This document shows, in pieces, positions 13,095 to 54,023 of a stretch of DNA of 64,000 nt. Position 1 is the stretch's first letter. The number at the start of each line of letters is the position of its first letter. The notes beneath the pieces were generated by a model, which saw only the letters and a list, made by a program, of their open reading frames with translations, was not told where the DNA came from and searched no databases. The translations under genes and the position numbers were made by a program. The DNA is from Nocardioides sp. Its GTDB lineage: Bacteria; Actinomycetota; Actinomycetes; Propionibacteriales; Nocardioidaceae. Location: the NCBI RefSeq assembly GCF_025965125.1, contig NZ_JAOPXM010000187.1. One strand, 5' to 3'.

Positions 13095-13220
13095 GCTCGA
13101 TCCGATCGTCGGACATCGGCCGTTCTGGGTGACTAGCCGGAAATGACCGTTCGACCGATACCGAGGCACCCGGACCGACGCCACATTGGGAGCAGTCAGT
13201 ACTAGTCCGAAGGAAACGAC

Positions 13221-13406: not shown

Positions 13407-13410
13407 CCAT

Positions 13411-13455
13411 GGCGTACGACGCGCCCCCTGGAGGGAGTGGGGCGCGTCGTACGTC
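13411..13455. terminator. stem-loop between convergent genes (14-17 bp GC-rich stem, 11-nt loop)
   Basis: GTACGACGCGCCCC (13414-13427) pairs perfectly with GGGGCGCGTCGTAC (13439-13452). No clear U-tract. Confidence 0.5.
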
Positions 13456-13506
13456 TGACTGCGCGCGTTGATTCGGATACCGAGCCCGTGCACCGAACGG
13501 CCTGGG

Positions 13507-14988: not shown

Positions 14989-15064
14989 CTGGATCAGTCC
15001 TGTTCTGGCCGGTCCGGCCGACGTAGACTATGTGGAGATTGACTCCGGTTACCTTGAGAACGAT

Positions 15065-15081
15065 ACGGAGACGGTCTCCGT
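15065..15081. promoter_or_regulatory. 17-bp palindrome ACGGAGAC-G-GTCTCCGT, candidate TetR operator
   Basis: Perfect 8+1+8 inverted repeat in the MFS/TetR divergent intergenic region. Confidence 0.45.
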
Positions 15082-15129
15082 TTAGCAAGTGCGAATGAAC
15101 TTTTCTTGGATCGAGGAGAGGTGAGGGCG

Positions 15130-36891: not shown

Positions 36892-38583
36892 CTAGGCAGG
36901 CTTCAGCTCCACGAGCGTGATGGAGCTCTTGGGGTAGGTCAGCGTGAAGCCTCCCGACCCCACGCCGACCGTGCCGAGCTTGTCGATGCCGCTGCCCGCG
37001 TAGCGGTAGGGCTTGGCCGTCCTGGCGTGGGCGAAGTGCGACAGGGTCAGTCTGCTGCGCAGGTCGCCACCGGTCTTGTTGACGACGACGATCGTCATCG
37101 GACCGGACGTGCCACGCCGCGCGGCGTACACCGCCAGCTTGCCTTGCGCGGAGCTCGTTGCGGAAACGCCGCGGTCGCCGAAGCCATGGTGCTTGCCGTC
37201 GTAGTTGCGGAAGATCTTGAACGCGGCCTCGGGGACCGGTGAGCTCTCCTGCGACCAGAACGTGGCGAGGTCCAGGCCCTCTCGGCCGAAGATGCCGAGG
37301 GTGTCCGCCTGGATGACGTTCTGCAGGCGTTTGTTCGAGGTGACGTCGAGGCCCATGTTGTACTCGGTCACGGCCAGCTTGGTCCCGGGGTAGTTGGCAC
37401 CGACCCAGTCACGCATGCGCGGCAAGAGGTAGATCTTCTGGTCGATCCAGGACGGGTCCCTGTAGGTCCGGTCCCACAGCGGTCGGGTGACGTCGGTGAC
37501 CGGGCTGTACCCGCTCCCTCCCCCTGGCGCCTGGGGGTAGTAGTGCAGGTCGAAGTAGTCCAGGAGCCGCACCCCGGTCTGCTGCTGGTGCTGCGCGAAC
37601 TGCTGGAGGTACCACGCCGAGATGTCGAGTCCGCCATGTGCCGCCCGGTCGGGCGACTCGGGGAAACAGCCGTTGTCGGGCACGTCGGCGGTCGAGCAGA
37701 AGTAGTTGGGCCAGCCCCACTCGGCCGGTCCGAGGACCTGGGCCGTGGGGTCGACGTCCTTCACGGCCTGGGCCAGGGCACTCGACTTCGCCCAGAGCTC
37801 GTCGAAGCTGAGCGGGTTCGGGTGGAAGTCGTGGTGCGTCTCGTTCCAGAGCCCCGGCTCGTTGCCGAGCTCGTAGATCTGTACGCCGCCCTGGCTCGCC
37901 GTCCCGTAGCGCCCGACGAGGTCGTTGATCCAGGCCGCCGAGAACGCGGGCCCGACCGGCTTGCCGGCCAGGTTCGGGTCGGCAACGGGGTTGCTGATCC
38001 ACTGTCCGTTTCGTCGCCCGTTGCCGCACACGGGGTGGAAGGTGTCGTGGTCGTCCTGCGGGTCGAAGACGTTCGCGGGGTAGCTGCACAGCTGGTCCTG
38101 GTCGTAGGTCACCGACTTCGCGACCCAACCCAGCGCCGGCAGGTTCAGCAGTGTCTTCGCCCCGACCCTGCGGTCCTTCTCGATGAGGGCCAGCGCTCCG
38201 CTGTAGCTGTGCCCGGTCGTGCAGTAGTCGAACGCAGGGATCCAGCAGTCGGGGAAGTTCTGGAAGTAGTAGTTGATGCCCTCGTTGCCGCCGTTGATCT
38301 GCCAGTTGTAGCTCTCGGTCGAGTCGCCGCCCCAGCGGTCGACGGGCAGGTTGATCGAGTTCGCGAGTGCCTCGTCCGCGAAGTTGATCCCGTAGATGTC
38401 GTTGGAGATCCGGTGTCGCCCGGCGGCGGCGTCGACCCTGAGGGTGACGCTCGGGGCCCTTACGGCGCCGCGATCGACCGCCACCGGCACCGGCGCATCG
38501 ACCGGCATGGCGTCCGCGCGGGAGACGAACGGGAGCCACGCTGCCGCCACGCCCAGGGACACGAGCCCCACCCAACGTCTCAC
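36892..38583 (-). CDS. secreted glycoside hydrolase, family 44-like (endoglucanase/xyloglucanase-like)
   Basis: Signal peptide. 'VDRWGGDSTESYNWQ', 'YELGNEPGLWNETHHDFHP' and 'LAVTEYNMG' resemble conserved GH44 blocks, including the two catalytic Glu positions (recollection). Confidence 0.7.
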   Translation of the reverse strand: MRRWVGLVSLGVAAAWLPFVSRADAMPVDAPVPVAVDRGAVRAPSVTLRVDAAAGRHRISNDIYGINFADEALANSINLPVDRWGGDSTESYNWQINGGNEGINYYFQNFPDCWIPAFDYCTTGHSYSGALALIEKDRRVGAKTLLNLPALGWVAKSVTYDQDQLCSYPANVFDPQDDHDTFHPVCGNGRRNGQWISNPVADPNLAGKPVGPAFSAAWINDLVGRYGTASQGGVQIYELGNEPGLWNETHHDFHPNPLSFDELWAKSSALAQAVKDVDPTAQVLGPAEWGWPNYFCSTADVPDNGCFPESPDRAAHGGLDISAWYLQQFAQHQQQTGVRLLDYFDLHYYPQAPGGGSGYSPVTDVTRPLWDRTYRDPSWIDQKIYLLPRMRDWVGANYPGTKLAVTEYNMGLDVTSNKRLQNVIQADTLGIFGREGLDLATFWSQESSPVPEAAFKIFRNYDGKHHGFGDRGVSATSSAQGKLAVYAARRGTSGPMTIVVVNKTGGDLRSRLTLSHFAHARTAKPYRYAGSGIDKLGTVGVGSGGFTLTYPKSSITLVELKPA

Positions 38584-39445: not shown

Positions 39446-39891
39446 CCCTCGAGTTCAGGACCCTCCGGGGGTTGACGGGAGTGGCCTCGGACCGGGACGG
39501 TGCCCGGGTGAAACGCGCCCCCCACGAGAACGTGGCGACCGTACTCGTCGACCCGGTGGTGCTGCGCGAGCTCGAGATGGACCTCATGGTCCTCGACCTC
39601 CGTCTCTGGCCGGTGGCCACCGCGCCGATCTGCGAGGACGGTCCTCGGGCCGCCTTCCAGATCCGCCGGCGGATGCTGGTGTCGCGCCGAGGAGCCTGGG
39701 ACGAAGCGGCCGAGTGGGTGCCGGTGTGGATCGCCTTCGGCGAGAGCTGGTACGTCGGCGACGAGCCGCTGCCCTGGTCGGCACACCAGACTCTCTGGCA
39801 GACGCTGGGTCGGTACGCCGACCATGTCCGCTATCGGCTGGGGCTGGGCGGCGTACCCCATCTCGACGTGCCGCGCGAGCGCACCGCCTGA
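39442..39891 (+). CDS. hypothetical protein (149 aa)
   Basis: The GTG overlaps the stop of the preceding membrane-protein gene (GTGA). Composition is moderately coding-like. No recognised domain. Confidence 0.35.
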   Translation: MTLEFRTLRGLTGVASDRDGARVKRAPHENVATVLVDPVVLRELEMDLMVLDLRLWPVATAPICEDGPRAAFQIRRRMLVSRRGAWDEAAEWVPVWIAFGESWYVGDEPLPWSAHQTLWQTLGRYADHVRYRLGLGGVPHLDVPRERTA

Positions 39892-40139
39892 CTGCTCGCT
39901 GGTCGGGTCAGGCCGACCGGGGCTGCTGGAAGCTCTCGACCACGAGCTCGCAGCGCACGGGGATGCCCCGGCATAGCCGAACGGGTGAACAAGTGGCCGA
40001 ACGCCCCACACATCGCGAAAAAGCATGCGACTGTCAGGTTGTCGCGTCCGATCCTCGATCGCGCGATGGGAGGGTCTCGGGTTTGCGCGTCATCCGTCAC
40101 CGCCGAGTTCTGACGTGCATTCATCACAGGGGAAATCAC

Positions 40140-42191
40140 TTGTTCACAATCCGTAAGGGCCGCGTCGGCATGCTCGCCGCCGGGTCAATGATCATCGCTG
40201 GCGTTGGCGCCACGGGTGCGGTCGCCGCCGGCGATCCCGACACCGACAACGTCATCGCCGACAACGCCGCTTGGTACGAGCAGGCCTACGAGAACTTCGA
40301 CACCGGCGGCTACCTCGACCCCGAGCAGGGCGACGTCGCGGGTCCGCAGCGCGCGCCGTTCGGCACTGGCAGCCACCAGATCAACATCGGTCAGTCATCG
40401 GCCCAGACCGAGCTCTACCGCACCGATGCGTACGACGGTCTCGCGTTGTCCGACCTCACGCGCCTCGAGTACTCGACGCTGGCCCGCTCGACCGTGGGCG
40501 GCGCCGATCGGCAGCCGGCGTACCTGCGCCTCAGCGTGGACACCGTGGACGACGGCACGGACAGCATCGACGCCAGCCTGTTCTTCTTCCCGGCCAACAA
40601 CGGGGCCATCGCGAACGGCGTGTGGCAGAACTGGGACGTCACCAACGGCGCCATCGACGTGAACGGCGACGGCGGTGGCACGACGACCCTCGCGGCGTAC
40701 GCGGCCGCCCACCCCGACGCCAAGCTCGTGAACGTGCCGTTCGACGCGGAGCACGACGCCGGAGCGGTCTCGCTGATCGTCGGCGGATCGCTCGGTGGCG
40801 CAAACGACCCGCAGACCCGTGGCGAGTACTTCGTGGACCGCGTCATCGTGGGCGAGTCCGACGCGGACACCCTGTACGACCTGGGCAGCGATGCCGAGAC
40901 CAGCGGTGGCACCACCAACCTGACCGTCGACGCAGACCACCTGCACGGCTGGGCCCACCAGGCCTACGACGACGTGAACTACCTGTCGTCGAACCAGACG
41001 TTCGTCAACGGCCCCGCCGGCGCGCCGCTCGGCGCGGGCAGCCTGCGGTTCGCCCTGAGCAACGAGACCAACCCCGCCCGGGTTGAGCTGTTCCGCACCA
41101 CCAACTACGACGGCACCCTGCTCCGTGACCTGCGGACGATGGACTTCTCCACGTTCCAGCGAGCCAACGCGGGCAATGCAACCCCGCAGCAGCCGGCGTA
41201 CGCGCGGCTCTCCGTCGACAACGACGGGGACGGCGCCACCGACGACTCGTTGTTCTACTACCCGGGGAACAACGGCGTCGTGCAGCAGAGCACGTGGCAG
41301 AGCTGGCACGCCGCCGACGGCGTCTGGGGCGTCAACGGCGACCCGGGCCCGCTCGACAGCATCACCCTTGCCCAGTACGTCGTCGCCCACCCGGACGCCA
41401 CGATCGTGGAGAACGCGGACGTCGGCGCAGGCCAGCCCACCGGCGGCGTCGCGTTCCTCGTCGGCGGTGGCAACACGGCCACCCAGCTCAACGGTGAGTA
41501 CTTCGTCGACGCCATCAAGATCGGCAAGGTCGATGCGGCCAGTGGCAGCGTGAACTCGGCCGAGCTGTTCGACCTCGAACCGGCCGCTCCGTCGGTGTCG
41601 ATCGGTGACGCCGCGGTTTCCGAGGGCAACCACGGCGCGACTCTGACCTTCCCGGTGACCCTGAGTGGCCCAGCGGGTGCGGACGTCGCCGTGGACTACG
41701 CCACGTCGGACGACACCGCGGTCGCCGGTGAGGACTACGAGGCGACCTCCGGCACCTTGACCATCGAGGCAGGCGACACCACGGGTCAGATCAATGTCCC
41801 GGTCCTTTCGGACAAGGTCCGCGAGGGCAACGAGAAGCTGACCGTGACGTTGAGCTCGCCCGGCTACGGGACGCTGAACGACTCCACGGCCACCGGCACG
41901 ATCCTCAACGACGACACCCGTGTCGGCCTTGCGCTGCGCAACGCCCGGGGCGACCACGTCGGCTTCCGGGTCAACACCCTGCCGGATGCTCCCGGTGACG
42001 GGGTGAAGGTGTTCCAGACGAAGGCCTCGGGACGCACGTTGATGTTCCAGGGAAGCCTGAACGGCCTCGGCCGACTCAACCGGGTCATGGAGCACGAGTT
42101 CAAGCCGGGCACCAGGCAGACGTTCGTCGCTGTCGTGCGGACCGAGAACGGTTCGTACAGGTCGAAGTCGGTGCACATCACCGTCCGCTGA
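40140..42191 (+). CDS. secreted protein with two tandem copies of an unknown ~230-aa domain, one Calx-beta domain and a C-terminal beta domain
   Basis: Signal-like N-terminus (FTIRKGRVGMLAAGSMIIAGVGATGAVAAG). Internal duplication (ELYRTDAYDG...QPAYLRLSVD... versus ELFRTTNYDG...QPAYARLSVD...). Calx-beta signature 'VSEGNHGATLTFPVTLS...VDYATSDDTAVAGEDYEATSGTLTIEAGDTTGQINVPV'. Start is the TTG at 40140 or the ATG at 40170. Confidence 0.75.
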   Translation: MFTIRKGRVGMLAAGSMIIAGVGATGAVAAGDPDTDNVIADNAAWYEQAYENFDTGGYLDPEQGDVAGPQRAPFGTGSHQINIGQSSAQTELYRTDAYDGLALSDLTRLEYSTLARSTVGGADRQPAYLRLSVDTVDDGTDSIDASLFFFPANNGAIANGVWQNWDVTNGAIDVNGDGGGTTTLAAYAAAHPDAKLVNVPFDAEHDAGAVSLIVGGSLGGANDPQTRGEYFVDRVIVGESDADTLYDLGSDAETSGGTTNLTVDADHLHGWAHQAYDDVNYLSSNQTFVNGPAGAPLGAGSLRFALSNETNPARVELFRTTNYDGTLLRDLRTMDFSTFQRANAGNATPQQPAYARLSVDNDGDGATDDSLFYYPGNNGVVQQSTWQSWHAADGVWGVNGDPGPLDSITLAQYVVAHPDATIVENADVGAGQPTGGVAFLVGGGNTATQLNGEYFVDAIKIGKVDAASGSVNSAELFDLEPAAPSVSIGDAAVSEGNHGATLTFPVTLSGPAGADVAVDYATSDDTAVAGEDYEATSGTLTIEAGDTTGQINVPVLSDKVREGNEKLTVTLSSPGYGTLNDSTATGTILNDDTRVGLALRNARGDHVGFRVNTLPDAPGDGVKVFQTKASGRTLMFQGSLNGLGRLNRVMEHEFKPGTRQTFVAVVRTENGSYRSKSVHITVR

Positions 42192-42211
42192 CCTCAGCAC
42201 CTGCAGAACAA

Positions 42212-42243
42212 GAACGCCCCCACCGAAACCGGTGGGGGCGTTC
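42212..42243 (+). terminator. perfect 14-bp stem / 4-nt loop hairpin after the Calx-beta gene
   Basis: GAACGCCCCCACCG-AAAC-CGGTGGGGGCGTTC, 20 nt after the stop. No U-tract. Confidence 0.6.
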
Positions 42244-42449
42244 CTGCATGTCCGAGCGCTGTCCCCGCTCGGAGTGTCGGGTTGAGGTGCGGCCGAGACC
42301 GCGGCTGACGCGACGGAACGGGGCCTTCCGGGTCGACGTGTCAATAGTCTAGACGGGTCTTGCGAACGGCTACTCCCAGGTAAAGAGTGCGGAATCTCGG
42401 CTCGCCGGCTGGCGAAGCATCTCGACTTGCATGGGGCAGGTGCGTTTCG

Positions 42450-45400
42450 ATGCGCATGAAGAATCTCGTTGTTGTCGTCGCCGTGTTGAGCACTGGAATC
42501 GCGGCCTTCCTCAGTCCGGCGGCCGCGTTCGCCGTACCGGCCCCCGAACAGCACGGCGCCCTGTCGTCCTGCGCCAGCGCGCCGGACAAGCCTGATGCGA
42601 CCCCGGAGAATCGCGACCGCTTCGTCGACCTGTGGTCGCCTCGGGTCGCGGACCACGCCTGGCTCCAGCAGTACGCCAACCGCGACTCCGTGCCTGCCGA
42701 CATCCGGGCCGAGGGCTTCCACGCGATGGATGCCGACACCCAGGTCTGGCTGCTGTCCTGCCTGCTCGACGACATGCTGGCCGTCGCGGGCGAGACGCCG
42801 GGCGTGGCGAAGCTCAACGCATACCTCACCGGTCTCAACATGATCATCTTCGGCAAGAAGCAGATCGCGGAGCTGCGCGACCAGCTCACGGAGATGCCTC
42901 CCCCGGAGGATGCCAACCAGCTGCCCGTGCACCAGGACATGACGAGTGCAGCCCTCGACAACATGACCCAGGACCTCGTCGACGAACCCAGCCTGACCTC
43001 CGACGACCAGCCCGAGTCGGACGCCACGGCGCCCAGTACGACGACCACGGACAGTTCCGAAGCATCGACCTCGCAAGAGCTGGAGACGCTGTCCGGCGCG
43101 CCGGCGATCGTCCCGGCGAGCTCGGAGCCGGTCGCCCCGCGGGCCCTGGGTCCGAAGCCGACCGCCTTCAACCCGCAAAGCCTGCTGGCCATCCAACCGA
43201 TCCAGATCCTGCTCAACGCCATCAACAGCCTGCTGCAGCTGATCAGCCAGATCCAGGGCCAGCTGTTCACGCTGCCCGGCCTGAACATCCTTGCCTCGGC
43301 CTTCTACAAGATCTGCGCCGAGTCGCCGACGATGCCGCTGAAGTGCAGCATCTCGCTGCCCGTCGGCGTCCCGATCCCGGCCGACGTGAACGGCGACAAC
43401 TTCCCTGACGTCACCGGCTGGCTGTCGCCGCTGATCGGTGGGGGCGCGGTCGGGGCCAAGTTCATGGTGACCCGGCTCTCCCCGGGTCAGGGGAAGCTCA
43501 AGGCGCACGTCTTCGCCGTCTACGACCCCCCGGCGGTCAAGAAGCGGATCCAGTTCGGCTTCGACGGGCGTGCGGACACGCTTGCCAACCGGACGGCCGC
43601 GACGTTCAAGCTGCACAACGTCCTGGCAGCTCTGCAGGGTGACGTGCACGTCACCGCCGACGTGCAGAGCTACACGCCCGGCACGGCCCAGTCACTGACG
43701 TTCGCCATCAAGTCACTGGTCGGTGGGTCCGCAGGCGTGCTTCCGTCCGAAGAGGATCCGATGGTGGGGTCCGTGCAGATGAGCCCGGTGCCGGACTCGC
43801 TCACGGTGGACGCCCGCCTCATCCACACGGCCGCCCGTGACCAGGACATCTTCACGGTGGGCTCCTCGACGCCGACCAAGGTGAACGCGCTCATCGACCA
43901 GAAGAGCACGACGACGACGCCGAAGAGTGACCGTGTGTTCACGGCTGAGGTCGACAAGCTGCCCACCTCGGTGACCGTGGACCTGGTCCGCAACGGCGAG
44001 ACGCAGACCATCGACTACACGGGTAGTGCTCCGATCGACCACGTGCGGGCAACCGACACCGCGACCCCGGACGTCAACCACCTGGGCTCGTTCACGGAGA
44101 GCATCTACGACGTCCACGGCGTGCCGACGAACGTCCACGTCAACCTCAAGGGTGCGCAGGACATCACGTACACGGCCTCGGCCAAGATCCCGGAGGTCTC
44201 GTTCTCCACCAGGACCCTGGTCGACAACGTGCTCCAGCAGCAGATCACTGCGAAGGCGCATCAGATCCCGAAGGCGGTCCACGTCACCAACCTGACGACC
44301 CCGGACCAGCAGGCGATCACCTACGACGCCGACAGCGAGCTGCAGGACGTCGAGCTCTCGATGTTCGACCTGAGCGAAGCCGGCGACAAGACCAACCTCG
44401 TCGCCAAGGCCACCGGCATCCCGACGCACCTGGCGTTCACGCAGACCAAGAGCACTGGTGTGTACGACCTCTCTGCCCCGGGCGGCATCGACCTGATCGA
44501 GGCGGCACTGACCCGCAACGACGGCACTCTGCTGCCGCTGCCGGGTGACCACGCGACCGTCCACAAGGTCGGGAACACGCTGGGCCTCGACTTCCGGCTG
44601 ACCGGGTTCGAGTCCGCACACTTCGACGGGTCGGAGAACACGACTGTCGAGCTCGGCCTGAACCCGGGTGGTCAGTCGTTCGACGCCATCGCCGACCTGG
44701 ACGACCCGAACGTGCTGGCCACGGCCCACGTGTCCCAGCTCCCGACGCACATGGCGGTGACGCTGAGCCCGACGGACGGGACAGCCGACTACGCGGCCAC
44801 GAGCGTGATCCCGCTCCTGGAAGCGGCGTTCACCCTGCGCGACACGGACACGTTCGCCACGGTCAAGCTCACCGACCTGCCGAAGAACATCGGGCTGACG
44901 TTCAACACGTCCGGCCCGGTGCCGGCGGTCACCTACGACGCCGACTCGCGCCTCGGGTCCATCGAAGCCACCTATCAGGAGGAGCCGGGTGGACTCGCGA
45001 TCCACGGTCTGATCAGCGACCTGCCGCAGCACATGACCATCGGCGGCATCGATCCGATGGTGTTCGACGCGCGCACTTCGGCGAGCGATCCCGCGGGATC
45101 GTCGTACCTGGGGCAGGTGCTCTTCCAGTACGCCGAGGACGGCGTCTTCGCCAGCCCGCCCACGAGCGACGATCACATCTACCTCGACACGCTGAGCGAC
45201 ACGCACGCCGAGCTCCAGTACACAGGTCTGAAGCTGCTGAGCGTCGACACGAGCGACCAGGAGCTCCACGCCGAGATCCGGAACACGTCGCCGCGCCTGC
45301 TGCGGGCGTACCTCACGACGCCGAACCTGACGCTGACGGGCTTCATCGACAAGGTGCCCGCCCAGATCAACATCGACCAGGTCGACAACCTCGTGTCGTA

Positions 45401-47582
45401 CCGCGCGAGCTCGCCGATCGACCAGATCTTCACCGACCTGCACACGACGAGCGGTGACGCCCTCGCCGTCGACGTCCACGGTGTGCCGGGCAGCGTCGAC
45501 GGTGGGCCCAACAGCATCGACGTGCTCTTCGACGGCGCGAACTCCAGGCTTAACTGGGATGCGTCCGGGGAGACCACGAGCATCTCGGCGCAGGCACACC
45601 TGACTCCAGCGACCCTCGGTGGCACGCGTGCCTTCGACGCCGGGCTGACCATCACCGGCATCCCGAGCCACTGGGATGCGACGTGGCTCGACGGCAACGT
45701 GCTCTTCCAGGCGCCCGATGGGATCGGGTCGATCGCGGCGCAGGTCACCAACCACGGCACGTACCACGTGCTGACCGGTGACCACCTCAGCGCGTTCTTC
45801 GACCAGCCGTCCGGCAACCTCGACGCCAGCCTGAAGATCAGCAACCTCACCAAGGCCGGCTTCAGCAAGCTGACCGGTGCCAACGGTGGCGGCTTCGAGG
45901 CAGCGCTGAACATGGGCAACCAGGGCAACTTCAAGTTCGCCGCCGACGTCACCCTGACCGCCACCAAGCTGCTGGCCAGCGGCGAGTTCAATCATCTGCC
46001 GTCTGCGCTCACCCTGCGCAGCGACGGGGGTCGGATCACCTACTCGGGCAACACCAACCCGGACCTGACCATGTCGGTCGCGGCCGGCACGGCGGCGGCC
46101 CTGGCCGCCACCCCCGAGCCGAACGACGTACACGGTGTGTCGGTGCGTGACGGTGCCGCCGGCGGCAACATTGCGGTCAGGGCCAAGCTTCGCCTGACCG
46201 GTCTGCCGACCGGCCTGGACCTGAACTCACCCGCGGGCACCTACACGGTGAGCGGGTACCACCCGACCAATGACACGCTGGTCGTGGACGTCATCCTCAC
46301 GGAGCTTGCGCCCGACCTGTCGCTCCAGGTGCAGCAGGTCGTGCCGACGGCTACCCCGGTCGACTTCACCTTCGGGCCGTTCCTGAGCTCGACGTCCGGC
46401 GACACGCACACTCTCAGCCTCAACTACACGGCGAACCAGGCACTCGGCTCGCTCACGGCCGAGGCGACGTACGGCAATACCGATGACGCGAAGCTCGTGA
46501 TCAGCTCGATCCCGAAGACGGTCGCGGTCAACGCCTCGTTCGGTCCTGCCCAGAAGAGCGTCAACGTCGACATGGACAGTGGCATCTCCGAGATCACGGC
46601 CTCCTACAAGAAGGTCGGTGCTGCCGACTTCGCCGCTTCGGTGAAGCTGGACGACGTGCCGAAGTGGGTCCATCTGCTGCTCGGTCGAGCCACCGGGACC
46701 GATGGCACGACGAACGTCTCGGCGCCGGACTTCACGTTCACAGCCGACGCAGCCGGCCTCGACATCGAGGCAGCCGTGACCGCGGAGATCGCGGACCCGC
46801 TGGACGTCAAGGCGGCAGCGCAGCTCAAGGTGACCAACCTCGGGAAGACCGTGACCGGCGCCCTGAACGGCCGGACCGTCAACATCGCCTCCACACCGGC
46901 GACCGAGAAGTTCCTGCTCACCGCCGCAGGCTCGGTGCAGATCAACGTCGATCTCGGCTTCGATCTGGTGGGTGGGTTCATCCACAACACCGGCTCGCTG
47001 GACATCAACATCGACGTCAAGCAGTTGACGCTCGGGTTCGAGAACGCGTCGACACTCCAGCTGGATCTGGGCGTCACGACCGGCCTCAAGGGTGACTACT
47101 CCTCGTTCACCCTCGGCGAGGACACCAAGACGGTGGCCACGATTCAGGACACGCTCAAGCTGGTCGCGAGCCTCCCCGATCCGTTCCCGAACATCAACTT
47201 CACGGTGTTCAACATCGGGCCGGATTCGATCAACTTCGAGAACGTGATCTCCTCGTTCAGGCTGGCGTCCAACAAGCTGGACGTGGCGTTCTCGCAGAAC
47301 CTCGTGGACATCCTGTGCTGCACCATCGACGCGCAGCTGCTGATGCGGCCGCACGCGGAGAGGACCACCAGCGGGCCGTCGTTCACGGTCGGGCAACCGC
47401 CGTCGGACGGCAACCCGCCGGCTTGGCTGATCACGCCCAACCCGAACGTGCTCGGCCTCTCGCTGCCCGACTTCGTCATAGACGTGGTGGCGTACTTCAC
47501 CAGCCCGTACGGGCACGATCTGAGCGGCAGGCTGCTGTGTGACGTGCCGCTGGCCGATCCGTTCGACTGCACGCCCTTCTAG
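42450..47582 (+). CDS. very large (about 1,710 aa) secreted repeat protein, family unknown
   Basis: Signal peptide MRMKNLVVVVAVLSTGIAAFLSPAAAFA, then an acidic S/T linker. At least 13 degenerate modules begin with [LIV]P-x-x-hydrophobic. Frame is uninterrupted with coding-like composition. Confidence 0.85.
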   Translation: MRMKNLVVVVAVLSTGIAAFLSPAAAFAVPAPEQHGALSSCASAPDKPDATPENRDRFVDLWSPRVADHAWLQQYANRDSVPADIRAEGFHAMDADTQVWLLSCLLDDMLAVAGETPGVAKLNAYLTGLNMIIFGKKQIAELRDQLTEMPPPEDANQLPVHQDMTSAALDNMTQDLVDEPSLTSDDQPESDATAPSTTTTDSSEASTSQELETLSGAPAIVPASSEPVAPRALGPKPTAFNPQSLLAIQPIQILLNAINSLLQLISQIQGQLFTLPGLNILASAFYKICAESPTMPLKCSISLPVGVPIPADVNGDNFPDVTGWLSPLIGGGAVGAKFMVTRLSPGQGKLKAHVFAVYDPPAVKKRIQFGFDGRADTLANRTAATFKLHNVLAALQGDVHVTADVQSYTPGTAQSLTFAIKSLVGGSAGVLPSEEDPMVGSVQMSPVPDSLTVDARLIHTAARDQDIFTVGSSTPTKVNALIDQKSTTTTPKSDRVFTAEVDKLPTSVTVDLVRNGETQTIDYTGSAPIDHVRATDTATPDVNHLGSFTESIYDVHGVPTNVHVNLKGAQDITYTASAKIPEVSFSTRTLVDNVLQQQITAKAHQIPKAVHVTNLTTPDQQAITYDADSELQDVELSMFDLSEAGDKTNLVAKATGIPTHLAFTQTKSTGVYDLSAPGGIDLIEAALTRNDGTLLPLPGDHATVHKVGNTLGLDFRLTGFESAHFDGSENTTVELGLNPGGQSFDAIADLDDPNVLATAHVSQLPTHMAVTLSPTDGTADYAATSVIPLLEAAFTLRDTDTFATVKLTDLPKNIGLTFNTSGPVPAVTYDADSRLGSIEATYQEEPGGLAIHGLISDLPQHMTIGGIDPMVFDARTSASDPAGSSYLGQVLFQYAEDGVFASPPTSDDHIYLDTLSDTHAELQYTGLKLLSVDTSDQELHAEIRNTSPRLLRAYLTTPNLTLTGFIDKVPAQINIDQVDNLVSYRASSPIDQIFTDLHTTSGDALAVDVHGVPGSVDGGPNSIDVLFDGANSRLNWDASGETTSISAQAHLTPATLGGTRAFDAGLTITGIPSHWDATWLDGNVLFQAPDGIGSIAAQVTNHGTYHVLTGDHLSAFFDQPSGNLDASLKISNLTKAGFSKLTGANGGGFEAALNMGNQGNFKFAADVTLTATKLLASGEFNHLPSALTLRSDGGRITYSGNTNPDLTMSVAAGTAAALAATPEPNDVHGVSVRDGAAGGNIAVRAKLRLTGLPTGLDLNSPAGTYTVSGYHPTNDTLVVDVILTELAPDLSLQVQQVVPTATPVDFTFGPFLSSTSGDTHTLSLNYTANQALGSLTAEATYGNTDDAKLVISSIPKTVAVNASFGPAQKSVNVDMDSGISEITASYKKVGAADFAASVKLDDVPKWVHLLLGRATGTDGTTNVSAPDFTFTADAAGLDIEAAVTAEIADPLDVKAAAQLKVTNLGKTVTGALNGRTVNIASTPATEKFLLTAAGSVQINVDLGFDLVGGFIHNTGSLDINIDVKQLTLGFENASTLQLDLGVTTGLKGDYSSFTLGEDTKTVATIQDTLKLVASLPDPFPNINFTVFNIGPDSINFENVISSFRLASNKLDVAFSQNLVDILCCTIDAQLLMRPHAERTTSGPSFTVGQPPSDGNPPAWLITPNPNVLGLSLPDFVIDVVAYFTSPYGHDLSGRLLCDVPLADPFDCTPF

Positions 47583-47590
47583 GGGAAGGA

Positions 47591-48706
47591 CTACCAGACC
47601 GAAAGCTCGGAGAGCAGGCTCTCATCGAGGCCAGCCGGCGACCGGAGGCGTACGAAGCGTGCGTTCGGTCGACCGGCTGGCCTGAGAGCCAGGGTCGGCC
47701 CGGAGCCGGTCGCGACGGTGCGGTACGTCGAGCCGTCCTCCGACACCTCGACGATCAGCTGACCGCTGACGCCACGTGCCACGACGAGATCGACAGGACG
47801 AGACCCGCCGAGGTCGATCACCACGCCCGTGACCACGGCGGCGCCCTTGCCGCTGAGCTGTGCAGGGGTCAACAGGTCTCCGTCAGTGGCGGCACAGGCG
47901 GACATGGTGCGGGTGACCGGGCGAGCCGTTCCCGTCACCGCAGCGCACGGACGGCCGCGCGACGGCGGTCTGCTGGCGGTCCCGTCGACCGGCAGCCTGG
48001 TGGACAGATAGCTGGCCCGGACGTCACCCGTGCCGCTGCCGCCCGCCAGGTCGGTGCCGGCGCTCACCGCGACCGCGCCCGACTGGTCCTCGAGGATGCG
48101 GGGGTCGATCGAGGCCGCGTTGCCGGACGCGGGCTGGGACCAGAACGCCGACTGGCCGTGGGCCTCGAACAGCTCCGCCGTGTACGCCGGGTCGCGGCCG
48201 GCGGCGCGGGGCAGGGGCGACCACGACAACCCGATCTGGCCGGACACGCTGGCTCGGGACCTCCACAGCCTGGCGTCCGGCAGGGTGATCTCGGTGTCCT
48301 TCGCGGTGAAGCTGATCGTGGTGCTGCCCTGAGCGGGCGGACCGGAGAAGACGGCGTTCAGGGTTGCTTCGGTCCCCAACGTGCCCTGGGTGTCGGAGCC
48401 CTTCAGCTCGAACTCGTAGCGGCCGTCGGCATCCGCCGTGGCGATGCTGGCCTTGTCGCAGAGGGCCGGCGGGTCGCGGAGCAGGCAGACGGTCGACAAC
48501 GTTCCGATGGCGAGCACGGTGCCGAGCAGGACTTCGCCGAGGTCGGCCTGCTTGAACAGCAGCACGTGCGCACCCGACAGTGGCCTTCCAGAGGCGTCCA
48601 GCGCCCGGCCGGAGATCCGGATCGGCGCGTCCGGATCCACCGAGCTGAACGTGCAGCCAGTGACCGCCAACGAGAGCACGGCAAGCAGCGCGGAAACCCT
48701 ACGCAT
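47591..48706 (-). CDS. lipoprotein with carboxypeptidase-regulatory-like and C-terminal discoidin (F5/8 type C)-like domains
   Basis: Lipobox 'LSLAVTGCTF'. 'ISGRALDASGRPLSGAHVLLF...ADADGRYEFEL' is CarboxypepD_reg-like. The C-terminal 'LIVEVSEDGSTYRTVA...ARFVRLRS...LSELSVW' is discoidin-like. The start was trimmed to the ATG at 48706. Confidence 0.7.
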   Translation of the reverse strand: MRRVSALLAVLSLAVTGCTFSSVDPDAPIRISGRALDASGRPLSGAHVLLFKQADLGEVLLGTVLAIGTLSTVCLLRDPPALCDKASIATADADGRYEFELKGSDTQGTLGTEATLNAVFSGPPAQGSTTISFTAKDTEITLPDARLWRSRASVSGQIGLSWSPLPRAAGRDPAYTAELFEAHGQSAFWSQPASGNAASIDPRILEDQSGAVAVSAGTDLAGGSGTGDVRASYLSTRLPVDGTASRPPSRGRPCAAVTGTARPVTRTMSACAATDGDLLTPAQLSGKGAAVVTGVVIDLGGSRPVDLVVARGVSGQLIVEVSEDGSTYRTVATGSGPTLALRPAGRPNARFVRLRSPAGLDESLLSELSVW

Positions 48707-48712
48707 GCCAGT

Positions 48713-48718
48713 AACATA
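48713..48718 (-). promoter_or_regulatory. candidate -10 hexamer TATGTT (minus strand), 6 nt upstream of the ATG at 48706 (leaderless geometry)
   Basis: The reverse complement of 48707-48718 is TATGTTACTGGC, followed by ATG. Confidence 0.35.
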
Positions 48719-48749
48719 AACCCACCTGCGTGGAGTATTAGGAGTACAA

Positions 48750-49172
48750 GTGCGCGTTCGCATGGGGATTCTCGCAGTGGCGCTCGCGCTGTCACTGGCT
48801 GCCTGCTCCGACGACTCCAAGTCCGACCCCGACCCGAGCCCGTCGGACGTTGTGTTCACCGAGGTCACCATCGACTGCCCACAGTTCGCGGACGCCGCCA
48901 AGAAGATCACCGACGCTCAGGCGGCGCTCTACGACGGCACCGGCGGCGCTGGTGCGATCGACGACCTGGTCACCGAGCTGAACGCGCTCAAGGAGGGCGC
49001 CCCGGACGACATCAAGGCCGCGCTCACCGACATGGCTGCTGCCTTCCGGGACGCCGCCCAGCTCCTCGAGAACCCGAATCCGGAGAACCAGGCTCAGCTC
49101 GCGGACCTGTCTGCGAAGCTGTCCACCGACAGTCAGAAGATCACCGCCTACATCACGTCGAAGTGCGGCTGA
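48750..49172 (+). CDS. small helical lipoprotein
   Basis: AGGAG lies 5 nt upstream. Lipobox 'LALSLAACSD'. The Ala/Asp/Leu-rich mature part ends in Cys-Gly. Confidence 0.65.
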   Translation: MRVRMGILAVALALSLAACSDDSKSDPDPSPSDVVFTEVTIDCPQFADAAKKITDAQAALYDGTGGAGAIDDLVTELNALKEGAPDDIKAALTDMAAAFRDAAQLLENPNPENQAQLADLSAKLSTDSQKITAYITSKCG

Positions 49173-49367: not shown

Positions 49368-52118
49368 GTGGCCCTCTTTGCTCGAGCGAGCGAACTCGAC
49401 GTCATCAACGCACTGCTTGGGCGACCCGGTGCGGGTGGGGCGCTGGTGCTGCGCGGCGAGGCAGGGGTTGGAAAGTCGGCCCTCCTGGACGCAGCGATCT
49501 CAAACGCTCGGCGCTCTGATGTTCGCGTTCTGACCACGGCCGGGGTCTCGTTGCAGATGCAGCAGCCCTTCGCGGCCCTCTCGCACTTGACCCTCCCTCT
49601 TCTGGGCGGCCGCCGCTTGACGGACCACGATCAGGAGACCCGTGAGGTCATCCGTGCTGCGCTCACTGGCGAGGACGCGCCCGCCGATCGACCTTTCAGC
49701 GTGGCCTACGCGGTACTGGAGTTGCTGGCTGCGTGTGCGGCAGAGAGACGCCTGCTCGTGGTCGTCGACGATGCCAGCTGGGTGGACGAAGAGAGCTGGC
49801 GCATTCTCTCCTTCGTTGGGCGCCGCGTCAGCTTCGACGAGATTGGGTTGGTCTTCGCGATGCGCGATGGCCCAGAGGCCGAAGATCGTCTCCGGGGGAG
49901 CCTGCTCCCGACGGTACGGGTCGAGCCGCTGCCCGATGAAGCGGCCGTCGCGCTGCTTCATCATGTAGCGCCAGGGCTTCGCCCGAGCATTCGCGACCTG
50001 ATCTTGGCCGAGGCGGGAGGCAATCCGCTCGGCTTGCTGGAGCTGTCCGATGAGGTCAAGCGGCATGGCGATTCGGTCATGTTGGAAGCCTCCGTCCCTC
50101 TTCCGGCGCGCCTTGTCCAGACCTACGCCGGTCTGGTGTCGGAACTGCCGGACGCCACTGGGTCACTGCTGATGATGGCCGCGTTCAACGACGGCCACAG
50201 TCTCCAGGAAACACTGGATGCCACAGCGCTCGCCTTTGAAGGAGAGGTCACGCTCGAAGATCTCGAGCCCGCGGTGTCCGCCCGCCTCGTTTCGGTCGAT
50301 GACAGATTCGAGCTTCGATTCCGTCACCCGCTGGTCGGGTCGGCGATGCGACAGATCACGAGCCTGGCAGACCATCGTCGTGCGCACTTGGCATTCGCGG
50401 ACCTCCTCCGAGATGACCCGGACCGGAGCGTCGCTCACCAGGCAGCAGCCGCTGTCGGCAAGGATGACGAGCTGGCGCGGGCACTGGCCTCGGCGGCACG
50501 TCGCGCCCGTCGCCGTGGAGCGCTCACGGCTGTCGTCACGACGCTGGAACGCTCTGCTCAGCTGACGATTGATGAGTCTTCCGCGGCGAGCCGTCTGCTG
50601 TGGGCGGCCCTGTCCGCAGCCGAGATCGGTGACGTTGCAACAGTCGAGCGGCTGGTGAACAAGGCCAGTCAAGCGCGACTGACCATGTCCGCTCGAGCGC
50701 GCCTGGCCTGGTTGCAGCAGACCTATCTCCAGGCGCCCTGGTCCGGCTCGATACAGCTTCGGACTCTCCTCGACGTCGTCGACCAGATGCGCAATGCGGG
50801 AGATCTAGGACTTGCACTGGATTCGCTCGTCGTCATGAGCATTCGAGCCTGGTGGTCAAGTGCCGACCCTGAGACACGGGACCTGATCGTTGCGATGGCG
50901 CAAACCCTGGACGAGTCCTTGACCGACGCCCGTGCCGTCTACGTCATTAGCGTGGTCGCACCACTCGAACACGGGTCGTGGGCCCTCGACCGGTTGACGG
51001 AACTGGCCGGTGCCGGCGAGGCGAACCCGGAGCGCCTCCACCTGCTGGCCAGCACCGCCACCTGCCTCGGCGCCGTCGCCCTCTCCAACGTCCTACACGC
51101 TGAAGCGGTCGCGGGCATGCGACGCCGGGGACGGCTGGGCACTCTCACGCGCGTACTGGCAGGTCAGGCTTGGGCCGCCGTGCTCATGGGCGATGCCCGG
51201 GTCGCCCTGACCGCCTCGAGCGAAGCACGTGCGCTCGGCGAGGAGACCGGATACCTGAGCTACGCCTTGGTGGCTGATCTGTCGCGTGCGGCCGCACTGG
51301 CTCTCCGGGGCGAGACCGCGGCAGCGGACGGGGTCGTGGCAGGTTTGGAATCCGTACTCCCCTCAGCCGGTCGCGACGCACTGCTGCCCATGCTGCAGCT
51401 GGCTCGCGGGCTCTCCGCCTTGGCTGCTGGGCGCCCGGATGACGCGTTCGACCAGCTGCTGAGGTCATTCCAACCCGGCGTCGCGTGCCATCCATCGCAA
51501 AAACTGGCAATGCTCTCCCACCTTGCGGAAGCCGCTTCCAAGAGCGGTCAGCTGGCACGCCTCGAGCCCATCCTGGCCGACTTGGCGCCCGTCGCAGCGA
51601 CCACCAGGTCTCCGTCCCTGCTGATGTCAGTCCGATACGCCGAGGCGCTCCTCGCCCAAGCGGATGACGGCGGCGAGACGCTGCGTGTTGTCTTGGAAGC
51701 CGACCTGTCCGGTTGGCCATTCGACCGTGCTCGACTGCAACTCGCCTACGGAACCGCCCTGCGTCACCGGCGCCAACGGCGAGAATCGCGTCCCCACTTG
51801 CGGGCGGCGGCTGAAGGCTTCGAAGCACTGGGCGCCCGACGGTGGGCCGAGTGGGCATGGCACGAGCTGCGGGCATCCGGCGAGACCGTCCAACGAGTCG
51901 AGGACGCCTCGGCCAACCTCAGTCCTCAAGAGCTACAGATCGCGATGATGGCAGCCCAGGGGCGCACCAACCGTGAGATTGCCGCTCAGCTGTTCATCTC
52001 GCCCAGGACCGTCAGCACGCACCTGTACCGCATCTATCCCAAGGTCGGGATCAGCACGAGGGCAGAGCTCCATCGCGTGCTCGCAGACCAGTTCACCGAC
52101 CCACAGTTGCGTCGCTGA
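49368..52118 (+). CDS. LuxR-family transcriptional regulator with N-terminal AAA/NTPase domain (LAL type)
   Basis: Walker A 'GEAGVGKSALLD' and Walker B-like 'LLVVVDDASWVD', then a long helical-repeat middle. C-terminal LuxR HTH 'LSPQELQIAMMAAQGRTNREIAAQLFISPRTVSTHLYRIYPKVG'. Confidence 0.85.
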   Translation: MALFARASELDVINALLGRPGAGGALVLRGEAGVGKSALLDAAISNARRSDVRVLTTAGVSLQMQQPFAALSHLTLPLLGGRRLTDHDQETREVIRAALTGEDAPADRPFSVAYAVLELLAACAAERRLLVVVDDASWVDEESWRILSFVGRRVSFDEIGLVFAMRDGPEAEDRLRGSLLPTVRVEPLPDEAAVALLHHVAPGLRPSIRDLILAEAGGNPLGLLELSDEVKRHGDSVMLEASVPLPARLVQTYAGLVSELPDATGSLLMMAAFNDGHSLQETLDATALAFEGEVTLEDLEPAVSARLVSVDDRFELRFRHPLVGSAMRQITSLADHRRAHLAFADLLRDDPDRSVAHQAAAAVGKDDELARALASAARRARRRGALTAVVTTLERSAQLTIDESSAASRLLWAALSAAEIGDVATVERLVNKASQARLTMSARARLAWLQQTYLQAPWSGSIQLRTLLDVVDQMRNAGDLGLALDSLVVMSIRAWWSSADPETRDLIVAMAQTLDESLTDARAVYVISVVAPLEHGSWALDRLTELAGAGEANPERLHLLASTATCLGAVALSNVLHAEAVAGMRRRGRLGTLTRVLAGQAWAAVLMGDARVALTASSEARALGEETGYLSYALVADLSRAAALALRGETAAADGVVAGLESVLPSAGRDALLPMLQLARGLSALAAGRPDDAFDQLLRSFQPGVACHPSQKLAMLSHLAEAASKSGQLARLEPILADLAPVAATTRSPSLLMSVRYAEALLAQADDGGETLRVVLEADLSGWPFDRARLQLAYGTALRHRRQRRESRPHLRAAAEGFEALGARRWAEWAWHELRASGETVQRVEDASANLSPQELQIAMMAAQGRTNREIAAQLFISPRTVSTHLYRIYPKVGISTRAELHRVLADQFTDPQLRR

Positions 52119-52213: not shown

Positions 52214-53173
52214 ATGACCGACCAGAAGACCCCTGTCCTCGAGCCTGCAGCGCAGGCCTTCGCTGAGGCAACAGCCGGCCCGCCCTTCACTTTCGAGCTA
52301 CCAGCCGACGTCTCACGCAAGGGCCTCGAAGATCTGCAGTCCGGCAACGACCTCAAACTCGATGCCGACATCATCGACCTCACCGTCGACACTGGCCAGA
52401 CCGGAACCGTGAAGATCCGCATCGTCAGACCACCAAACTCCGCCGGGCCGCTGCCCGTGCTGCTCTACACCCATGGGGCCGGGTGGGTGCTGGGAAGCCC
52501 GGACACCCACGAACGGTTGGCTCGCGACCTCGCCGTGGGAGCCAACGTCGCAGTGGTCCTGCCGCACTACGACCGGTCCCCGGAAGTGAAGTACCCGACC
52601 GCGCTCGAACAGTGCTGGGCAGTAGCCGAGTGGATCCGCACTCAGGGGTCCGACCACAACCTCGACCCTTCCTCGATCGTGATTGGTGGCGACTCGTGCG
52701 GCGGGAACATGGCCGCCGCCCTCACCCTGCTCGCGAAACAACGCGGCGGCGTCAACTTCGCAGCCCAGGTACTCTTCTACCCGGTCACGAACGCCAACTT
52801 CGACACCGGCTCGTACCTGCAGTTCCAGGAAGGCTATTTCCTGCGGCGAGACAACATGATGTGGTTCTGGGACCAATACGCTCCCGATCCCGCCCAGCGC
52901 GATGCGATCACGGTCGCCCCGCTGAAAGCGACACTGGACGACTTGGCAGACCTGCCGCCCGCGCTCATCATCAACGGCGAGGCCGACGTGCTGCGCGACG
53001 AAGGAGAGGCCTACGGCGACCAGCTCCGCGCCGCCGGCGTCCCTGTGACCGCAGCTCGCTATGCGGGCATGATCCACGACTTCGTCATGCTCGACACGCT
53101 CCGCACCACCAACGCCGCCGAGGCCGCGATCGCGCAAGCCTGCGCGTTCATCTCGTCCGCAGTCTGGAGGTAG
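52214..53173 (+). CDS. alpha/beta hydrolase, hormone-sensitive-lipase-like esterase
   Basis: 'LLYTHGAGWVLG' is an HGGG-type oxyanion motif and 'IGGDSCGGNMAA' is a GDSxG nucleophile elbow. 'DVLRDEG' and 'HDF' are triad regions. Confidence 0.8.
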   Translation: MTDQKTPVLEPAAQAFAEATAGPPFTFELPADVSRKGLEDLQSGNDLKLDADIIDLTVDTGQTGTVKIRIVRPPNSAGPLPVLLYTHGAGWVLGSPDTHERLARDLAVGANVAVVLPHYDRSPEVKYPTALEQCWAVAEWIRTQGSDHNLDPSSIVIGGDSCGGNMAAALTLLAKQRGGVNFAAQVLFYPVTNANFDTGSYLQFQEGYFLRRDNMMWFWDQYAPDPAQRDAITVAPLKATLDDLADLPPALIINGEADVLRDEGEAYGDQLRAAGVPVTAARYAGMIHDFVMLDTLRTTNAAEAAIAQACAFISSAVWR

Positions 53174-53177
53174 ACCC

Positions 53178-54023
53178 ATGACCGCGCTCACCAAACAAGA
53201 ATCCCGCCAGCTGGCCCAGGCGAATGCTTCCAACCGGACGCCGGTGGTGTTCATCCACGGGCTCTGGCTACTGCCGAGCAGCTGGCAGAGGTGGGCCCAG
53301 GTCTTCGAGGACCACGGCTATGCGGCCTTGGCGCCCGACTGGCCTGACGACCCCGAGACGGTCCAACAAGCCAACGCCAACCCCGATGTCTTCGCCAACA
53401 AGACTGTGGGCCAGGTCGCGGACCACTATGCCGAGGTCATCGACCGTCTGGACCACAAGCCCGCCGTCATCGGGCACTCGTTCGGCGGGCTGCTTGCCCA
53501 GATCCTCGCCGGACGTGGCGCTTCCGCCGCCACCGTAGCCATCGACCCGGCGCCGTTTCGCGGCGTGCTGCCCCTGCCGATCTCCTCGCTGAGGTCCGCG
53601 TCCCCCGTCCTCGGCAATCCGGCCAACCGGCACCGAGCTGTGCCATTGACCTACGAGCAGTTCCGCTATGGCTTCGCCAACGCGGTCCCTGAGGATGAGG
53701 CCAAGGAGCTCTACGACACCTACGCCGTGCCCGCACCGGGGGCCCCGCTGTTCCAAGCCGCAACAGCAAACCTGAATCCATGGACCGAGGTCAAGGTCAA
53801 GACCAAGGCCAGCAACCGCGGCCCGATGTTGATCATCTCCGGCGAGAAGGACCACACCGTCCCGCGAGCGATCTCCCACGCCAGCTACGAGAAGCAGAGG
53901 CGCAACCAGGGCGTCACCGAGTTCGCCCAGATCCTCGGCCGTGGTCACGCACTCACCATCGACCACGGCTGGCGCGAGGTAGCCGACACCGCTCTCAGCT
54001 TCGTCCAACGCTTCGTCAAGTAG
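53178..54023 (+). CDS. alpha/beta hydrolase
   Basis: 'VVFIHGLWLLPSSW', 'IGHSFGGLLAQ' (GxSxG) and 'GRGHAL'. Confidence 0.75.
   Translation: MTALTKQESRQLAQANASNRTPVVFIHGLWLLPSSWQRWAQVFEDHGYAALAPDWPDDPETVQQANANPDVFANKTVGQVADHYAEVIDRLDHKPAVIGHSFGGLLAQILAGRGASAATVAIDPAPFRGVLPLPISSLRSASPVLGNPANRHRAVPLTYEQFRYGFANAVPEDEAKELYDTYAVPAPGAPLFQAATANLNPWTEVKVKTKASNRGPMLIISGEKDHTVPRAISHASYEKQRRNQGVTEFAQILGRGHALTIDHGWREVADTALSFVQRFVK

Follow-up and report, generated by a model that had tools for sequence, protein, structure and literature searches.

In Nocardioides sp., a 64,000-nucleotide stretch of contig NZ_JAOPXM010000187.1 (NCBI RefSeq assembly GCF_025965125.1), here called the window, carries a gene for a protein of 1,710 amino acids (aa) that we refer to as the big protein. 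It belongs to an undescribed superfamily of large actinobacterial proteins, predicted to be exported by the Sec route, for which neither Pfam nor NCBIfam has a model. The gene is real and conserved. Its coding sequence runs from 42450 to 47582 on the + strand and begins with an ATG at 42450, the open frame extending back to a GTG at 42387; position and length agree with a first-pass annotation made from the sequence without database searches. The predicted mature protein has a mass of about 177 kDa (176.8 kDa) and an isoelectric point of 4.5. The interpretation that we favour, as plausible but somewhat short of probable, is that of an elongated, rigid β-rod that would be exported, retained at the cell envelope by lipoproteins, and used as a scaffold or spacer.

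An undescribed superfamily

The first-pass annotation had been unable to place the protein in any known family, and homology searches lead to the same point. Searches of Pfam, NCBIfam and the Protein Data Bank (PDB) sequences with the big protein give no match at expect values (E) up to 1. When 27 orthologues are run singly against Pfam and NCBIfam at E up to 10, there are scattered sub-threshold matches to unrelated families; single modules of the protein give one chance match (E 0.12), and the family profile against the PDB retrieves only an esterase (E 0.36). The gene upstream serves as a positive control inside the window: it matches Calx-beta at 4e-17, so the method works here. Across the repeat region there is no Pfam match to Big, FN3, cadherin, Calx-beta, DUF11, RTX or β-helix families. 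A confident profile match to a described repeat family, which the annotation had named as the result that would count against novelty, was thus looked for and is absent, and structure comparison with Foldseek gives no real neighbour.

Yet the big protein is not an orphan. A search of 5.8 billion proteins yields 93 clusters (at 90% identity) of mostly colinear relatives of ~1,700 aa with 55-90% identity. Where a source is named, it is Nocardioides, Marmoricola, Nocardioidaceae or Pseudonocardiales, and more remote members occur in Acidimicrobiales, Jatrophihabitans and Frankiaceae. A profile of the protein body, searched against 1.84 billion representatives, collects ~254 clusters (at 50% identity), with hosts in Nocardioides, Marmoricola, Pimelobacter, Pseudonocardiales and Jatrophihabitans, and a scan of one genome per species finds 31 loci, all in Actinomycetota. 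Members of the superfamily are 1,200 to 5,358 aa long and carry 5-35 module-onset motifs each. The big protein has the features that define the group: the body profile with [LIV]P onsets, the N-domain (RFVxLWxPR/EGFH) and a cysteine close to the C-terminus.

What is conserved is a cassette made of a signal, a ~140-aa helical domain, an acidic Ser/Thr/Pro linker, an amphipathic helix with a Cys-Cys loop, a β-body of ~1,150-1,400 aa and a cap. The cassette is always C-terminal, and the last 150 aa form the conserved end of the whole superfamily. In the giant relatives that have any Pfam or NCBIfam match, extra domains are found N-terminal to it, either CBM96/DNRLRE with PKD or Big_13, or a Kelch propeller. 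Because the additions lie on that side, the cassette can be regarded as a C-terminal portion that stays constant in multidomain extracellular proteins. The superfamily also duplicates locally, since one locus (L001) carries tandem paralogues: a copy of 1,479 aa (5353-9792) lies directly upstream of the 1,696-aa orthologue (10001-15091), to which it is 62% identical in the N-terminal half and 44% in the C-terminal half.

Architecture and predicted fold

The first-pass annotation had divided the protein into a Sec-type signal, a helical N-terminal domain, an acidic Ser/Thr-rich linker, a hydrophobic helix-like stretch and a series of old, diverged internal repeats, including two modules of the form xTYDADSxL; it had also pointed to paired cysteines at the C-terminus and to the lack of an LPXTG signal. 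Each of these is found again, the helix with low confidence, and the signal recurs across the family. The signal peptide, read from the sequence, covers residues 1-28 (42450..42533, +; MRMKNLVVVVAVLSTGIAAFLSPAAAFA) and is predicted to be cleaved between AFA and V. The AxA site is conserved in the orthologue consensus, and Sec-like N-termini are present in 76 of the 103 superfamily representatives; it is this signal peptide that points to export of the big protein. The helical N-domain follows (residues 37-180, 42558..42989, +), modelled by AlphaFold2 as helices between residues 52 and 178 with a predicted local distance difference test score (pLDDT) of ~70-87. It carries the conserved motifs RFVxLWxPR, EGFH and IFxK together with Cys41 and Cys104, and its hidden Markov model matches 155 of the 243 family proteins. 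Even in giant relatives, where this domain is internal, it is always found just upstream of the β-body. No relative of it is found in Pfam or the PDB, where a profile search gives only weak matches; its profile retrieves only two fragments of the same family from the 5.8-billion-protein set, an uninformative result in which the word index was probably limiting. The acidic linker (residues 181-250, 42990..43199, +) consists to 44% of Ser, Thr and Pro and is predicted to be disordered, with pLDDT below 50. Disorder is predicted over residues 142-282 as a whole, except for a low-confidence helix at 251-272. This amphipathic helix (pLDDT ~37-47) and a conserved CAESxTxPLxC loop occupy 43200..43409 (+), and the loop, in which Cys289 and Cys299 are invariant, opens the β-body.

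The remainder of the protein is predicted to be all-β from residue 285 on. AlphaFold2 was run on two overlapping pieces: residues 1-900, aligned with 57 relatives, and residues 800-1710, aligned with 73. The mean pLDDT of the two halves is 77 and 84, and the predicted template modelling scores are 0.63 and 0.66; pLDDT exceeds 90 across most of 470-1400. Residues 285-1698 form 97 strands, which hold ~65% of all residues from 285 on. Most strands are 6-13 residues long and are joined by turns of 2-4 residues. They are amphipathic throughout, with a mean Kyte-Doolittle hydropathy of +1.69 on one face and -1.03 on the other (97 strands), and this pattern is uniform across ~1,400 aa with almost no helices to cover either face. 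Within this region the β-body proper (residues 321-1460, 43410..46829, +) is built of ~50-aa modules of four strands, each opening with [LIV]-P.

The modelling and Foldseek search that the first-pass annotation had proposed, carried out on these two halves, reveal no real structural neighbour, with template modelling (TM) scores of at most 0.24 in the PDB and 0.22 in BFVD. For the N-terminal half nothing reaches E 1e-3. For the C-terminal half the only matches at E ≤1e-3 are teneurin YD shells (E 4e-5 to 6e-4), with TM 0.05-0.09 and a probability of ~0.12. Other weak matches are to outer-membrane barrels, ApoB100, LptDE and Tc/Rhs shells, all with TM ≤0.24, and what they have in common with the models is only a generic meander of long β-hairpins. 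β-Helices and Ig-like stacks are abundant in the PDB, and neither appears in the Foldseek lists for the two halves. As far as the models go, the body is apparently a new large β architecture.

The repeats are regular enough to be counted and too diverged to be seen by simple means. The 13 onsets listed in the first-pass annotation lie at residues 504, 558, 606, 657, 764, 810, 858, 969, 1071, 1183, 1252, 1354 and 1403, and one more is present at residue 447. Beyond residue 300 there are 16 instances of the pattern [LIV]Pxx[hydrophobic]x[hydrophobic], as against 2.7 ± 1.6 in shuffled sequences (maximum 11 in 2,000). Module lengths range from 46 to 112 aa. Self-comparison of the big protein by BLAST detects no internal repeats, which become visible only by profile-profile comparison: single modules then match one another with probabilities up to 97%, and the body profile, compared with itself, aligns when shifted by ~206 aa with a probability of 98.9% (E 1e-17). 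Because of this shift, the repeat unit is taken to be a super-repeat of modules of ~48, ~50 and ~107 aa, with ~16 predicted strands; this higher-order grouping adds to what had been proposed at first. Super-repeat 1 (residues 558-763, 44121..44738, +) has modules of 48, 51 and 107 aa and a GDH motif. Super-repeat 2 (residues 764-968, 44739..45353, +) has modules of 46, 48 and 111 aa, is 26.6% identical to the first, and has DDH at the aligned position. Super-repeat 3 (residues 969-1182, 45354..45995, +) comprises modules of 102 and 112 aa with an aligned GDH, and is 22-28% identical to the other two. More diverged copies flank these three clear ones. The aligned motifs belong to a nearly invariant Asp-His dyad in the long module of each central super-repeat, read as PGDHA, SDDHI and TGDHL (residues 699-703, 906-910 and 1109-1113; ~44545-44558, ~45166-45179 and ~45775-45788); the dyad could be structural or could form a metal or ligand site. 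The number of repeats is not fixed: short forms of ~1,250 aa retain the two ends and are shorter by ~450 aa, or about two super-repeats. Because length varies in whole repeats, the body is best pictured as an open-ended stack, or rod, rather than as a closed barrel or shell.

The C-terminal cap (residues 1461-1710, 46830..47579, +) has three very long strands (22-29 aa), one helix (1674-1683) and an SPxG motif. The cysteines of the big protein are at positions 41, 104, 289, 299, 1623, 1624, 1697 and 1707. Of 103 long representatives, 84 have a cysteine among their six final residues (3.6% expected), and in 39 of the 103 the chain ends with it; it usually comes after a hydrophobic stretch and an SPxGGG-like motif (P0094-P0233). 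In the big protein the corresponding residue is Cys1697, after which come 13 more residues, among them Cys1707; Cys1697 presumably forms a disulfide with Cys1623 or Cys1624. The big protein, whose C-terminus reads ...LLCDVPLADPFDCTPF, contains no LP.TG, and none of the 103 representatives has an LPXTG motif, a C-terminal transmembrane segment or a hydrophobic C-terminal tail.

The locus and its lipoproteins

Two lipoprotein genes lie directly downstream of the big gene. The first-pass annotation was silent about them, and they came to light in the comparison of neighbouring genes that it had suggested. The first, lipo370 (47591..48706, -), encodes 371 aa with a lipobox LAVTGC and is convergent with the big gene, leaving an 8-bp gap between the two stop codons in which there is no hairpin. 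It is syntenic in ~20 of 34 related loci, with 46-64% identity. Its N-terminal region is weakly CarboxypepD_reg-like (Pfam E 0.003) and its C-terminal region weakly discoidin/CBM32-like (PDB profile E 0.12 to 5msx), both below curated thresholds. The second, lipo140 (48750..49172, +), encodes 140 aa with a lipobox LAAC; Cys43 and Cys139 are invariant in it, and weak PDB profile matches (E 0.005) liken it to a helical bundle. It is syntenic in ~27 of the 34 loci, and the synteny of both lipoprotein genes extends across genera. The two genes are divergent across a 43-bp spacer (48707-48749), and the spacer measures 29-44 bp at three other loci (L001, L002, L037); promoters in so short a space would therefore overlap, and the messenger RNAs are probably leaderless. 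In the short-form loci that were read (L003, L035, L036), lipo140 is on the same strand as the big gene and overlaps its 3' end by 13 nucleotides, and the two are therefore predicted to form an operon. The lipo140 family comprises 131 clusters of 135-155 aa whose named sources are only Nocardioides and Marmoricola; in its small size and narrow taxonomic range it resembles the family of the big protein. A comparison of the N-domain and C-terminal cap with lipo140 and lipo370 gives hhalign probabilities of at most 11%, and a relationship between them is rejected. At two loci of 41-42% identity, an open reading frame (ORF) of ~480 aa that is not a lipoprotein lies downstream of the big gene (L017, 5259-6692, -; L033, 12630-14102, -); its N-terminus (EEIQGNILRAYGNEYR) resembles a DyP-type peroxidase, and it is followed by a conserved ORF of ~380 aa.

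The gene occurs in two settings. The long form elsewhere sits in a fumarase/glpX region. The short form of ~1,250 aa occupies, together with lipo140, the same slot in ~9 species that include Pimelobacter simplex (L003, L020-L024, L027, L028, L030, L035 and L036). This slot is inside a highly conserved cluster for steroid or lipid side-chain catabolism, made up of an NMO-type oxidoreductase, two AMP-binding acyl-CoA synthetases, enoyl-CoA hydratase (ECH), a luciferase-like monooxygenase, ChsH2/DUF35 and a thiolase-like protein, and the location is at most a hint that the short form has to do with hydrophobic substrates and how they are handled. Between species the short form is 68-92% identical and lipo140 52-86%, and the flanking enzymes are 92-98% identical. 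Such fast evolution of the two proteins would be expected if they were exposed in the envelope.

On the 5' side, the upstream gene stops at 42191 and is followed by a hairpin (42212..42243, +) with a perfect 14-bp stem and a folding free energy of -37.8 kcal/mol (z -6.9; 0 of 200 shuffles fold as well), ending exactly 206 nucleotides before the ATG of the big gene. To judge by its sequence it is likely a terminator and the 5' limit of the transcription unit; a consensus terminator scan does not list it, and it has no T-tract. The 206-nucleotide region that follows (42244..42449, +) presumably holds the promoter and the 5' untranslated region. Of the separate transcription unit proposed in the first-pass annotation, the hairpin thus stands, and the promoter has not been found: a scan for the sigma-70 consensus detects none upstream of the big gene, a scan that is uninformative for actinobacterial promoters.

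The other neighbours have no lasting association with the big gene. The upstream ORF (39714-42191, +) encodes up to 825 aa, and its true start is probably later, near MLAAGSMIIAGVGA. Its product looks secreted, with two similar N-terminal halves of ~220 aa, the Calx-beta match already mentioned, and a C-terminal region that matches nothing. Farther away are a GH44 glycoside hydrolase gene (36892-38583, -), a large AAA_16 and GerE regulator of the LAL/LuxR type (49368-52118, +) and two adjacent α/β-hydrolases, Abhydrolase_3 and Abhydrolase_6 (52214-54023, +). None of these Calx-beta, GH44, LuxR and hydrolase neighbours is conserved beside the big gene elsewhere, and they are excluded from the system. 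At two other loci (L002, L037), two non-homologous α/β-hydrolase genes are found a few kb downstream of the big gene.

A proposed envelope rod and its alternatives

The following model can be proposed for the scaffold or spacer. The rod would be an open-ended and extensible stack of ~50-aa four-strand modules, arranged in ~206-aa super-repeats, with one hydrophobic face and the other polar and strongly acidic. Its C-terminal cap would be stapled by the near-terminal cysteine. After export it would remain at the cell envelope, held by the two dedicated, membrane-anchored lipoproteins encoded next door, namely lipo140 and, in the long form, lipo370. Retention by lipoproteins is proposed because the big protein has no covalent sorting signal. 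From there the rod would extend into the thick wall or across it, serving as a scaffold or spacer, and distant relatives would use theirs to display the carbohydrate-binding, propeller or Ig-like domains of their N-terminal side. Several points weigh against this picture. The shape and length of the rod, and which of its faces is buried and which exposed, are deduced from predicted strand patterns, from variation in repeat number and from the lack of compact structural matches. Likewise, binding between the big protein and the lipoproteins is suggested by synteny, and the loci of two distant homologues (L017, L033) are without these lipoproteins. The big protein has no recognisable payload domain, so that the object to be scaffolded is left unspecified. 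The presence of the short form in a steroid/lipid catabolic cluster fits ligand handling better than a purely structural role. Finally, a literature search by accession, locus tag and topic returns nothing on this superfamily. The probability left beyond this model and its rivals belongs to functions outside those considered here.

The best of the rivals takes the hydrophobic face to be exposed. It would form a groove or belt along which lipids, sterols or hydrocarbons are carried between the environment or wall and the membrane, with the lipoproteins as the docking point at the membrane; the system would then do in a monoderm what the Lpt and AsmA/TamB bridges or the ApoB100 β-belt do elsewhere. 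We consider this unlikely without being far-fetched. The strands are strongly and uniformly amphipathic over ~1,400 aa with few helices, as a track would need, but the same is equally expected of a two-layer protein core. The ApoB100 β-belt and LptD/LptDE recur among the weak top Foldseek matches of both halves, but at TM ≤0.24 and low probability this is the likeness of any β-hairpin meander. All short-form loci are within the conserved cluster of acyl-CoA synthetase, ECH, ChsH2, thiolase-like and monooxygenase genes, and the partners are membrane lipoproteins; however, the long form, including that of the window, is not beside lipid genes. All named hosts belong to Nocardioidaceae, Pseudonocardiales or Jatrophihabitans, which are monoderm and have no outer membrane, so there is none to bridge to. 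No AsmA, DUF490, OstA or vitellogenin profile matches. More precisely, there is no Pfam match to AsmA, AsmA_2, DUF490, DUF748 or DUF3971, either for the big protein (E up to 1) or for the 27 orthologues (E up to 10), nor to the OstA/LptC profiles, and the Foldseek match to LptDE has TM 0.07-0.12 and a probability of at most 0.23. Actual membership of the AsmA/TamB, Lpt or ApoB-like families is thus rejected for want of profile support and for negligible TM. Outer-membrane barrels such as TonB-dependent receptors and porins are set aside as well (TM ≤0.23, root-mean-square deviation 20-35 Å, monoderm hosts). A bolder combination of both ideas, in which a wall-spanning β-rod of tens of nanometres would offer its hydrophobic face as an open track for sterols, lipids or hydrocarbons, docked on the lipoproteins as the core of an unrecognised monoderm envelope machine, is decidedly improbable.

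A very different proposal would make the body a diverged RHS/YD or teneurin-like closed shell that encloses, for example, a toxin, with the small downstream protein conferring immunity. It draws on the teneurin YD shells in the Foldseek list for the C-terminal half, where Rhs proteins of the type VI secretion system and TcB/TcC are also found, on the two modules with TYDADS[RE]L, which resembles YDxxGRL, on the size of the body, which is about that of an RHS shell, and on the small gene directly downstream. Against it, TM to the YD shells is only 0.05-0.09. PF05593 and TIGR01643 miss the big protein, the 27 orthologues and the single modules (E up to 10), the only trace being TIGR01643 at E 0.47 in one distant relative. 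Real Rhs segments and the YD profile match 0 of 243 family proteins (best E 0.39, phmmer --max). With a YD profile made from Rhs segments of the PDB, the big protein scores -2.7 bits, compared with -2.9 ± 1.5 for shuffles and 25 bits for an RHS control, and as a positive control a synthetic YD consensus recovers the PDB Rhs proteins at 1e-102. In hhalign, the two YD-like modules reach 23.5% and 5.2%, and the other 13 at most 1.2%. There is no DPxGL core in the big protein; the conserved end is C-terminal and the variable side N-terminal, the reverse of RHS. Relatives differ in repeat number by whole super-repeats, a variation that a closed shell would not be expected to accommodate, and the downstream product is a conserved lipoprotein with predicted export that is not polymorphic and is kept in step with the big protein. 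On the profiles, the controlled YD comparison, hhalign, the missing DPxGL and the reversed polarity, homology to and membership of RHS/YD are rejected, and a shell of this kind is a very remote prospect.

It is just as hard to credit that the big protein is an ordinary but diverged member of a described adhesin or repeat family, be it choice-of-anchor G, DUF11, Big/Ig-like, Calx-beta, FN3, cadherin, RTX or β-helix. The idea comes from UniProt, whose entry for the orthologue A0A3N0DZ85 (P0049) bears the title "Choice-of-anchor G family protein". At NCBI this sequence is now annotated as "hypothetical", and no choice-of-anchor model of NCBIfam release 20.0 matches it (E up to 1) or any of the 27 orthologues (E up to 10). 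Nothing in Pfam matches, there is no C-terminal sorting signal, and no β-helix or Ig-like stack is listed by Foldseek. The label itself is rejected: NCBIfam 20.0 does not reproduce it, there is no alternative C-terminal anchor, and the literature does not mention the family.

That the frame is a chance ORF of GC-rich DNA or a decaying pseudogene is refuted for practical purposes, for although high-GC genomes yield many long spurious ORFs and several overlap the big gene on the opposite strand (40395-43649, 43713-46133 and 46227-47516, all -; 1,084, 806 and 429 aa, together overlapping the big gene and its upstream neighbour), the big gene has a GC content of 0.62/0.46/0.91 at the three codon positions, the coding pattern of a ~69% GC genome, as well as full-length colinear orthologues of 41-90% identity in many genomes with hundreds of invariant positions, and high AlphaFold2 confidence. 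The antisense frames fail the same test; without the third-position GC signature, they are dismissed as artefacts of high GC.

Should the envelope rod prove right, a new superfamily and an apparently new large β architecture with a modular grammar would come with their own dedicated lipoproteins. If, in addition, the wall-spanning rod served as a track, it would be the Gram-positive counterpart of the Lpt and AsmA bridges, with an unrelated and undescribed fold. The organisation of large proteins in the thick wall of non-mycolate actinobacteria, and the passage of hydrophobic substrates through it, are poorly understood. The Pimelobacter simplex group, where the superfamily gene is inside a steroid/lipid cluster, offers a concrete entry point. 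Even as a mere stalk, this is a family for annotation pipelines to name, and a long, confidently predicted β-meander with quantised variation in length. Uncharacterised large secreted repeat proteins are common; what is new here is the sequence family and the predicted fold, and biologically the big protein is a large repeat protein with predicted export.

The comparison with known systems places this protein among several of them without joining any. Like the AsmA/Lpt bridges and the ApoB100 belt, it is predicted to have a long continuous sheet with one hydrophobic face, and it has membrane or lipoprotein partners. Unlike AsmA/TamB, however, it starts with a predicted cleavable signal rather than a membrane anchor, in a monoderm host, and no crossing loops or helices of the type known in repeating-β-groove proteins are predicted. 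With the RHS, Tc and teneurin shells it shares very long runs of antiparallel β-hairpins, over more than 1,000 aa, but its repeat is of ~50 aa (four strands) and theirs of ~20 aa (one hairpin), and it lacks the polymorphic C-terminal toxin of RHS. With choice-of-anchor G it has in common a surface-type protein with a signal peptide. The Gram-positive stalk proteins (Ig-like, G5-E and SasG-type rods) differ from it in that it has no LPXTG and no known repeat fold, forms one continuous body instead of separable domains, and would be anchored, hypothetically, by non-covalent attachment to lipoproteins. Like these stalks, it is acidic and repetitive, with a variable number of repeats and predicted export, and in its relatives the functional domains are N-terminal and the constant region is C-terminal.

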